Source: Escherichia coli (GTDB lineage: Bacteria; Pseudomonadota; Gammaproteobacteria; Enterobacterales; Enterobacteriaceae). Taken from it: 353 bases of DNA. Where the stretch lies: the NCBI RefSeq assembly GCF_003334255.1, contig NZ_QOWU01000255.1; one strand, 5' to 3'. The translations under genes were made by a program, and so were the position numbers. Below, piece by piece: positions 13 to 353 of the stretch; positions within the stretch are counted from its first letter, which is position 1, and each line of letters opens with the position of its first letter. The notes beneath the pieces were generated by a model. It worked only from the letters and a program-made list of their open reading frames with translations. It was not told the origin of the DNA and did no database searches.

Positions 13-153
13 CTACTGCTTACACTGTAAGAACGCCGCAAACTCCGCTCCCCACAAATTCAGCCGGAACTCACACAGCGAACCGTGTAACATCCAGATG
101 GTGAAGATTACCGTCATGCAAATTGTGACGGTGATAAGCGATTTTTGCGACAT
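13..153 (-). CDS. Hok/Gef-family type I toxin (small host-killing membrane peptide, HokA-like), 46 aa
   Basis: Minus-strand ORF from ATG (plus 153-151) to TAG (plus 15-13), translating to MSQKSLITVTICMTVIFTIWMLHGSLCEFRLNLWGAEFAAFLQCKQ. It has the Hok/Gef hallmarks: a short polar N-terminus, one hydrophobic transmembrane stretch (LITVTICMTVIFTIWML), the conserved SLCE motif, and an E-x-AAF C-terminal motif with a Cys near the end. From memory it aligns best with E. coli HokA (...FTWMIRDSLCELHIKQESYELAAFLACKLKE); I cannot assign a specific paralog, so no symbol is given. AGGAGG sits 8 nt upstream of the ATG. Confidence 0.9.
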   Translation of the reverse strand: MSQKSLITVTICMTVIFTIWMLHGSLCEFRLNLWGAEFAAFLQCKQ

Positions 154-158
154 AGCGC

Positions 159-187
159 TTGCCTCCTGAGTGGAGAGGCGCTAACCT
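159..187 (+). promoter_or_regulatory. Candidate promoter for the Sok-like antisense RNA (-35 TTGCCT, -10 TAACCT)
   Basis: Plus strand has TTGCCT at 159-164, a 17-nt spacer, and TAACCT at 182-187, which would start transcription near 194. The -10 matches consensus only at the conserved T1, A2 and T6 positions. It is the best-placed candidate upstream of the 213-250 hairpin, but weak. Confidence 0.25.
162..167 (-). promoter_or_regulatory. Shine-Dalgarno sequence (AGGAGG) of the hok-family toxin gene
   Basis: Plus-strand CCTCCT at 162-167 is AGGAGG on the minus strand, followed by 8 nt (CAAGCGCT) and then the ATG at 153-151. This is a perfect core SD with a canonical spacer. Confidence 0.8.
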
Positions 188-193
188 TCTACT

Positions 194-253
194 TGTCAAG
201 GAAAGAAGTGTCAGGGCCTCGGGTTAACGTTAAAGTTGACTCGGGGCCTTTCC
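194..253 (+). ncRNA. Candidate Sok-like antisense RNA (type I antitoxin), about 60 nt
   Basis: Plus-strand transcript antisense to the toxin leader: a ~19-nt 5' tail (194-212), then a 16-bp hairpin (213-228 paired with 235-250, loop GTTAAA), then TTTCC. The helix has 12 Watson-Crick and 4 G:U pairs on the plus-strand RNA; on the minus strand those 4 positions are C-A mismatches. Size and shape (single-stranded tail plus one terminal hairpin) match the roughly 64-nt Sok RNA of plasmid R1. The 5' end is inferred from a weak promoter and the U-tract is short, so both ends are uncertain. Confidence 0.4.
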
Positions 254-307
254 ACATCAGGCCTTCAGGTTCACCTTCCAGCCATCAGCCGAAAGGCACC
301 CGCGCAT

Positions 308-336
308 AATCTACGATTTTTGCCCTGCACGGGCAA
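308..336 (-). promoter_or_regulatory. Candidate sigma70 promoter for the hok-type mRNA (-35 TTGCCC, -10 TAGATT)
   Basis: On the minus strand, -35 TTGCCC (plus 336-331) and -10 TAGATT (plus 313-308) are separated by 17 nt, with a T6 run just upstream. The predicted start at about plus 300-301 gives a leader of ~150 nt, similar to hok of R1. The downstream RNA would begin GGGUGCCUUUCGGCUGAUGG, which resembles the R1 hok mRNA 5' end as I recall it (GGCGCUUGAGGCUUUCUGCCUCAUGACGUGAAGGUGG). Hexamer matches are only moderate. Confidence 0.35.
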
Positions 337-353
337 CAAAAAACCCGCCATCA

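Follow-up and report, generated by a model that had tools for sequence, protein, structure and literature searches.

The hok mRNA of R1 is described by a model in which tac/fbi, tac/ucb and SD/dcb pairings are combined with a metastable tac hairpin (PMC9841398). Another described system, hokW-sokW, comes from the Stx2 prophage Sp5; HokW is 51 aa long and starts MKQQKAM, and its leader is GCGGGTGCTTGAGGCTATCTGCCTC (Takada et al., 2021; PMC8621323). The enrichment of hok in prophages is already known. A recent Hok survey catalogued the peptides and explicitly excluded Mok, Sok and the mRNA structure, and recent surveys cover the present cluster at the protein level only. The RNA elements of this cluster are unannotated, and the one feature by which it could be a variant is the apparent absence of mok. 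For comparison, an R1-type locus was folded with the same scripts as the present one. The GAGGC-UUUCU-GCCUC hairpin, which a first-pass annotation of the present DNA had named for the 5' end of R1, was indeed found in the first 22 nt of the R1-type hok mRNA as a nascent structure, and nt 1-7 paired with AAGCGCC in the 3' UTR.

Identity of the locus and its toxin gene

The window, by which we mean the whole 353-nt stretch of Escherichia coli DNA that was analysed, contains in its list of open reading frames a hok-type toxin CDS of 46 aa on the minus strand (13..153, read from 153 to 13; MSQKSLITVTICMTVIFTIWMLHGSLCEFRLNLWGAEFAAFLQCKQ; WP_000078907.1). RefSeq names the product 'Hok/Gef family protein', Hok/Gef is also the name of 56/56 database relatives, and Pfam PF01848 (HOK_GEF) matches residues 8-44 with an E-value of 4.7e-8. 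The toxin scores under the cut-offs of the NCBIfam models. The best NCBIfam match is HokA of E. coli K-12 (NF007290), with 38 bits versus a curated cut-off of 89, and the toxin is no HokA equivalog. The C-terminal AAFLxCK motif is presumably common to HokA and the present toxin.

Several E. coli strains have a chromosomal locus that matches the window with 100% identity, and ~1,550 of 5,426 complete E. coli genomes contain a relative. In strain G1/2, the locus is flanked by an Ail/Lom gene (lom) and further phage genes, and many Stx-converting phages carry loci 95-97% identical to the window. The window is a lambdoid prophage locus that adjoins lom and encodes a hok-family type I toxin. It is like hokW-sokW in being a prophage-borne hok-type type I toxin-antitoxin locus of Stx-converting lambdoid phages. 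However, its toxin has 46 aa, begins with MSQKSLITV and adjoins lom, and is a different paralog. The published primers and the published description (51 aa, MKQQKAM, another leader) rule out that the present locus is hokW itself. Records label the present locus 'MokW-like host killing'.

Predicted promoter and start of the toxin mRNA

Positions in the mRNA are numbered from the presumed start (+1 at window 301), and a window position equals 302 minus the mRNA position. With this numbering, window 255-304 (minus strand) corresponds to the first ~47 nt of the predicted toxin mRNA. The first-pass annotation had placed the 5' end of the mRNA in the same interval, and the assignment is supported by the conserved -10 element, by position 1 of RF01794 and by the onset of similarity at the -35 element. 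The predicted -10 element is TAGATT (308..313, minus strand), at conserved spacing to GGGTG; its variants are TAGATT, TAAATT and, in Salmonella, TAGAAT, and in the E. coli and Salmonella homologs its end always lies 6 nt before GGGTG. The predicted -35 element is TTGCCC (331..336, minus strand). In the E. coli homologs, TTGCCN is found ~17 nt upstream of the -10 element, and at loci with unrelated flanks the similarity starts exactly at the predicted -35. Position 1 of the Rfam model RF01794 aligns with window 301 and with the equivalent base in 7-8 diverse homolog copies. A scan of the window for sigma-70 and terminator consensus sequences listed nothing; it was too strict for the -35 element and missed both the hok -35 and the antisense promoter, and both promoters were deduced from conservation among homologs.

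The hok promoter directly follows the intrinsic terminator of the upstream gene lom, which consists of AACCCGCTGTGATGGCGGGTT and a T-run at window 342-353 (minus strand), is truncated by the window end and continues into L001 5992-6012. An inverted repeat, TTGCCCGTGCAGGGCAA, at window 320-336 overlaps the predicted hok -35 in loci of the Stx-phage type only. It could be an operator or an extra terminator structure.

Predicted alternative partners of the mRNA 5' end

Pairings, stability, conservation and covariation were computed for the hok leader. They make it likely that the mRNA 5' end (~17 nt) is a tac-like element with three mutually exclusive partners, belonging to a prophage hok-type switch. 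The element is GGGUGCCUUUCGGCUGA (mRNA nt 1-17; 285..301, minus strand), and its first base is the one that aligns with RF01794 position 1. Its partners are nt 19-35 in nascent RNA, nt 47-59 when the 3' end is missing, and a 3' UTR box in the minimum free energy (MFE) structure of the full-length RNA.

The local hairpin, of the metastable type, has a core of nt 5-15 paired with 19-29 and an extension of nt 1-4 paired with 32-35 (267..301, minus strand), as judged from folding and conservation. It is the MFE structure of every prefix of 28-52 nt. The 11-bp core in mRNA nt 1-30 folds at -15.0 kcal/mol (z -4.9), and core plus extension in nt 1-36 fold at -18.7 kcal/mol (z -5.0); in both cases 0/200 shuffles were as good. 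Purine box 1, CUGGAAGG (274..281, minus strand), forms the 3' arm and pairs with CCUUUCGG of the 5' end. In nascent RNA, tac is modelled to pair immediately downstream, as a metastable hairpin would.

Once nt 56-60 are present, the MFE structure has nt 1-14 paired with GGAAAGGCCCC at nt 47-59. This tac-ucb stem gives nt 1-60 an energy of -31.9 kcal/mol (z -5.0; 0/200 shuffles as good). The plus-strand RNA of the same region has a z of -1.4 and folds no better than shuffles. The ucb-like box, GUGGAAAGGCCCC (mRNA 47-59; 243..255, minus strand), takes up nt 1-14 without the 3' box; when the full-length RNA is folded, its partner is GAGGCC... (nt 82-94). The box also shows complementarity to the predicted antisense terminator, in its 3' arm and its tail. 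The barrier between the local hairpin and the tac-ucb stem is ~10 kcal/mol by a direct-path heuristic. Both alternative folds are retained in 25/26 distinct homolog 5' ends, despite indels and differing loops. The modelled alternative, in which tac pairs with ucb once fbi is removed, is a prediction.

Predicted pairing between the 5' end and the 3' UTR

The first-pass annotation had suggested fetching the 3' UTR and checking it for complementarity to 255-304. The 3' UTR box is UCAGCCGAUAUGGCACCC, located in the flank of the window (L001 6389-6406), and its pairing box CAGCCGAUAUGGCACCC is strongly complementary to the 5' region. The 15-bp bipartite duplex has an energy of -29.2 kcal/mol, compared with -14.2±2.9 kcal/mol for shuffled partners (0/200), and among all segments downstream of nt 60 the box is the one that pairs best with the 5' end. 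In the full-length MFE structure (-154.3 kcal/mol, z -6.1), nt 1-7 pair with 348-354 and nt 10-17 with 337-344. The 5' end (tac) is complementary to a 3' UTR element (fbi), which is the opposite of the refuting outcome that the first-pass annotation had named, a 3' UTR lacking such complementarity. Among 59 homologs, the pairing is found at -21 to -29 kcal/mol in 31/32 distinct 5'/3' combinations, the exception being the decayed copy L056, and RNAalifold keeps the outer 5'/3' helix in 57-59/59 alignment rows. The 3' box is conserved within the hok module despite unrelated flanks, and lineage-specific extensions of the 5'/3' helix differ in sequence (UGA/UCA versus GCUG/UGGC).

Just past the stop codon in L001 lies the stem-loop GACGGGGAC-GAAA-GUCCCCGUC, and at columns 321-344 RNAalifold reports two pairs with both sides changed in 29/59 rows. 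According to the model, this stable post-stop stem-loop would protect the trimmed mRNA. No canonical terminator was found directly after the 3' box in the window's own context, where a downstream ORF starts. In the contexts of E. coli type-2 and Salmonella copies, a strong hairpin is found 15-25 nt downstream of the 3' box. The downstream hypothetical ORF has its annotated ATG (L001 6398) within the 3' box, and a better combination of SD and ATG lies at ~6423.

Covariation among homologs

Joint changes are seen at positions 13, 21 and 341. The E. coli types have G at position 13, and L070 and every Salmonella copy have A there; A13 occurs in 13/37 distinct sequences, always with U at both 21 (local hairpin) and 341 (3' box). 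G-U intermediates occur among these positions, and A·C never does. In the local hairpin, where G13-C21 compensates to A-U, 93.1% of cells are paired versus 30-66% in slid registers, and in the 5'/3' helix 94.7% are paired versus 26-44% in slid registers (register-corrected alignment); such pair counts come from hand-registered alignments with N as gap placeholder and lean towards the tested structures. The covariation score is 0.190 for the local hairpin versus 0.146±0.013 (0/500 shuffles as high) and 0.122 for the 5'/3' helix versus 0.094±0.009 (1/500 as high), with phylogeny ignored in both shuffles. Phylogeny is likewise ignored in the permutation of partners, by which each of the three helices is more stable with its cognate partner than with a permuted one (0/5000, 6/5000 and 0/5000). 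The homologs are close relatives with few independent substitutions, and each helix has one clearly compensated pair.

In the MAFFT alignment (A2), the Salmonella rows are one column off on both arms. The 'both sides changed' counts that RNAalifold gives for columns 23-27 are artefactual because of this offset, which also wrecks the consensus of short 5' segments. Since the MAFFT columns are unreliable for the 5' arm, we relied on alignment-free tests and hand-registered alignments.

Repeated motifs and the 3-bp hairpin

The first-pass annotation had drawn attention to short motifs in 255-304, and their coordinates proved exact: on the plus strand, CATCAG lies at 255-260 and 283-288, CCTTCAGG at 262-269 is followed by CCTTCCAG at 274-281, and GCC-GAAA-GGC lies at 288-297. 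When 255-304 was shuffled 2000 times with its dinucleotides preserved, 22% of the shuffles contained a direct repeat that was exact over at least 6 nt, 23% contained as many or more pairs of 8-mers with up to 2 mismatches, and 34% contained at least one hairpin of 3 bp with a 4-nt loop. Taken alone, the motifs and the 3-bp hairpin are within chance expectation.

In the mRNA, the 3-bp hairpin is GCC-UUUC-GGC (nt 5-14; 288..297, minus strand), a transient MFE structure. In isolation, it has an energy of -2.5 kcal/mol, equalled by 35/200 shuffles. When growing prefixes were folded, it was the MFE structure only at a nascent length of 16-20 nt (-3.7 kcal/mol), and its pairing probability is ~0 once the RNA is 36 nt long and likewise ~0 in the full-length molecule. 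Its middle pair, C6-G13, is C·A in 9/21 distinct homolog 5' ends without compensation (hand-registered alignment); the change G13->A, which is matched in the longer helices, breaks it. The likeness of this hairpin to the R1 5' hairpin, as pointed out earlier, does not extend to a conserved counterpart, and the longer conserved hairpin (5-15/19-29) wins over it. The 3-bp hairpin is more probably just a short-lived seed from which the local 5' hairpin starts to form.

The repeats did not hold up as functional repeats either. They fall into boxes and loops of the alternative folds, and beyond the closest relatives the repeat is no longer exact. CUGAUG copy 1 (mRNA 14-19; 283..288, minus strand) forms the top pairs and loop of the local hairpin and is replaced by GCUG or UUUCCG in Salmonella homologs. 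Copy 2 (mRNA 42-47; 255..260, minus strand) lies opposite copy 1 where the tac-ucb stem has a 4x4 internal loop. E. coli type-2 loci have CCAGAUG or CCGGAUG in its place, and Salmonella lacks copy 2. Purine box 1 corresponds to CCTTCCAG on the plus strand, and purine box 2, CCUGAAGG (262..269, minus strand), corresponds to CCTTCAGG. In the tac-ucb fold, purine box 2 lies in an apical hairpin of nt 19-42, where its CCU pairs with AGG (26-28) and GGCC with GGCU (19-22). The AAGGCC in this region is nearly invariant. The folds suggest that some of the 'repeats' are purine boxes rivalling for the 5' end (CCUUUC) and that the others are the facing sides of an internal loop. Purine box 2 (GAAGG) was also considered as a rival partner of the 5' end and rejected: forcing the 5' end onto it gave -12.4 kcal/mol versus -18.7 kcal/mol for the local hairpin, and this weaker pairing was never the MFE structure.

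Predicted switch at the hok ribosome-binding site

Three further boxes take part in the predicted switch. The GAGGC box (mRNA 82-86; 216..220, minus strand), equivalent to the R1 'mok SD' box, is nearly invariant and is predicted to pair with ucb in the closed form and with GCCUC (nt 123-127) in the open form. The dcb/anti-SD box, GCCUCUCC (mRNA 123-130; 172..179, minus strand), would be paired to the hok SD while the leader is closed and to GAGGC once it is open. The hok Shine-Dalgarno sequence, GGAGG (mRNA 136-140; 162..166, minus strand), forms five pairs with nt 126-130 in the full-length and local-hairpin states.

In the MFE structures with the 3' end intact or the local hairpin enforced, GGAAAGGCCCC pairs with nt 82-94 and GCCUCUCC covers the hok SD. 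With at least 7 nt removed from the 3' end, nt 1-15 shift from fbi to ucb (47-59) and GAGGC shifts from ucb to GCCUC; the pairing of the hok SD is reduced or rearranged, with 3 anti-SD pairs left. Closed and open forms of this kind are those of the published R1 model (PMC9841398). The MFE switching is non-monotonic: 3' ends at nt 347, 336, 330 and 300 give the tac-ucb stem, and a 3' end at nt 322 gives the local hairpin.

Beyond the computed pairings, we infer where the transcript starts and stops, how its 3' end is processed, how translation is controlled, that an antisense RNA is made and in which order these events follow. In the nascent RNA, the 5' end would be caught by the adjacent segment in an 11-15 bp hairpin that uses CUGGAAGG. 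With the 5' end held locally, the downstream leader would stay closed and keep the ribosome-binding site of hok sequestered. Once the transcript is complete, the 5' end may move onto the bipartite 3' UTR box (337-344 + 348-354, 'fbi') and lock the closed form. Trimming of the 3' end would then let the 5' end move to GGAAAGGCCCC (47-59, 'ucb'). The tac-ucb stem would free GAGGC for GCCUC, loosen the anti-SD/SD hairpin and expose the target of the Sok-like RNA.

Upstream reading frames and a predicted antisense RNA

No conserved mok frame was found by two criteria: 34/59 homologs have no upstream ORF running into the hok SD or start, and the upstream ORFs of the remaining homologs are inconsistent and non-homologous, with 1-nt indels breaking the frames (window 60-199, minus strand). 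Since no mok frame is conserved, the downstream logic cannot equal that of R1. On sequence grounds, the subfamily apparently is 'mok-less', with the hok SD (162-166) opposite the anti-SD box. The homolog appears hok-like at its 5' and 3' ends, yet it does not appear to be a canonical three-gene hok/mok/sok unit. A 22-codon uORF is present at window 189-257 (minus strand), whose AUG (257-255) lies inside CUGAUG copy 2, 4 nt after GAAGG. Its AUG is conserved in the E. coli copies, its frame length is not, and it is missing from Salmonella. The start codon and the SD-like box of this uORF are both paired in the predicted folds.

On the plus strand, conservation points to a Sok-like antisense promoter, TTGCCT (159-164) and TAACCT (182-187) separated by 17 nt (159..187). 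It is conserved in all homologs, with the variants TTGACT/TTGCTC and TATCCT. The R1 antisense promoter has the same layout. The predicted Sok-like RNA (195..253, plus strand), drawn from sequence and conservation, has ~59 nt, with a variable 5' part, a terminator-like hairpin at 215-248 and UUUCC. It would stop at ~253, just outside 255-304. Loci that are >94% identical elsewhere are hypervariable in ~20 nt at window 195-214 (mRNA 88-107). The predicted 5' recognition part of the Sok-like RNA and its target lie there, and the variability suggests that antitoxin specificity is diversifying between co-resident prophage copies.

Alternative explanations

Three other explanations of the region were weighed against the tac-like switch. 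The 3-bp hairpin could correspond in function to the 5' hairpin of R1, and CATCAG and CCTTC(C)AGG could be repeats with a function, for example as binding sites. The motifs are real, the 3-bp hairpin exists and is the MFE structure of the first 16-20 nt, and R1 has a hairpin with a UUUCU loop in the same place. However, the stability of this hairpin is reached by 35/200 shuffles, its probability is ~0 from 36 nt on, and C6-G13 is broken, uncompensated, in 9/21 variants; the repeats are at chance level, and only the closest relatives have CUGAUG as an exact repeat. We therefore consider this explanation very unlikely. That the stretch is coding, either for the 54-aa plus-strand ORF (145-309) or for the 26-aa minus-strand ORF (271-351), or is a DNA site such as a direct-repeat operator, is extremely improbable. 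Both ORFs appear in the mechanical listing, and the inverted repeat at window 320-336 overlaps the -35. Against this stand the 1-nt indels that break the 145-309 frame among near-identical homologs, and the extension of the 271-351 ORF into flanks that are unrelated at other loci; a protein-coding potential of the two ORFs was rejected on these indels and non-conserved flanks. The CATCAG repeat is not kept in the Salmonella homologs, and the plus-strand RNA folds in a shuffle-like manner (z -1.4).

The region might also be merely a conserved 5' UTR or initial transcribed sequence, where GC richness and the close relationship of the sequences produce the helices as by-products and no switching takes place. 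Almost no variation is seen in the first 7 nt or in the GGCACCC box, which leaves helix 1 mostly uninformative; the homologs are closely related, and the shuffle controls ignore phylogeny. By-products would, however, be hard to reconcile with z values of about -5 to -6 against dinucleotide shuffles, with a 3' box that travels with the module across unrelated flanks, and with G13, C21 and C341 changing jointly via G-U intermediates and never to A·C. The lineage-specific extensions of the 5'/3' helix, with their differing sequences, and an architecture that is that of an experimentally established family speak against it as well. We judge such a by-product origin unlikely and prefer the tac-like element with its three partners.

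Relation to R1 hok, RF01794 and other prophage modules

The architecture is that of a classic hok mRNA, with tac, fbi, ucb and a metastable hairpin, in an undescribed subfamily that falls under the Rfam threshold and is distinct from hokW. The likeness to R1 hok comprises the Hok/Gef ORF, a G-rich 5' end that pairs locally, with a segment ~50-70 nt downstream or with the 3' UTR, an open form with a GAGGC...GCCUC hairpin, a stem-loop right past the stop and, as a prediction, an antisense promoter in the leader. Run through identical scripts, the R1-type locus behaved in the same manner. There are also differences. The local hairpin has 11-15 bp and -15 to -18.7 kcal/mol here, compared with 5-9 bp and -7.6 to -13.7 kcal/mol in R1, and UUUC is in its stem rather than in a loop. 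The 3' box is bipartite with 15 nt paired, compared with ~7-9 in R1, and in the window's context no terminator directly follows it. No mok frame is conserved here, and the SD controlled by the predicted gate is that of hok itself.

The 157-position RF01794 model aligns over its full length with window 301..142 (E 4.6e-8), and the tac-ucb stem, antisense-terminator hairpin, GAGGC hairpin and SD region follow one another as they do in the model. The score is 41 bits against a gathering threshold of 59, and 8/8 homolog copies score 35-53 bits. The threshold is missed, yet the E-values of 4.6e-8 to 4e-5 indicate homology. Many inner pairs of the tac stem are non-canonical in the alignment to RF01794, because the apical part is built differently in this subfamily. 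RF01794 is named 'sok antitoxin', and its consensus ends in the hok AUG on the toxin-sense strand (window 142-301, minus strand). Annotation based on RF01794 will mislabel the hok leader as Sok.

As a tentative extension, which we hold possible but somewhat doubtful, the lom-adjacent subfamily, which is found in E. coli Stx/lambdoid prophages and in Salmonella prophages, P2-like and other, could represent a hok variant without mok, in which a long bipartite clamp and a strong trap gate the SD via GCCUCUCC and bypass a leader ORF. In Stx phages, the overlap of the 3' box with the start of the next ORF might make activation depend on transcription or processing of the phage instead of a dedicated terminator.

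The multi-state folding programme of R1 hok is recognisable, and co-evolving, in a prophage Hok cluster that the Rfam threshold misses. The understanding of how hok systems work is unchanged by this. The coordinates can be used to annotate the RNA parts in roughly 1,500 E. coli genomes' worth of loci, and G13/C21/C341, UUU versus UU and the hairpin loops are natural variants for co-transcriptional RNA trapping. For Stx phages, a second hok-type module stands beside hokW, and its control is now testable.

Several copies differ in arrangement or state. Many Salmonella hok copies are found at the ends of P2-like prophages, beside Ogr/Delta genes. The entire hok module is tandemly duplicated in Salmonella locus L085 (203-343 and 701-841), and tandem modules are also present in the Salmonella loci L091 (701-841 and 1195-1335) and L092 (701-841 and 1191-1331). 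In L017 and L087, the first ~40 nt of the leader are swapped for unrelated sequence, as in decayed or recombinant copies. L056 is a decayed copy with a mutated 5' end (GGACACC) and a mutated ucb, in which all three pairings are lost and the ORF is kept.
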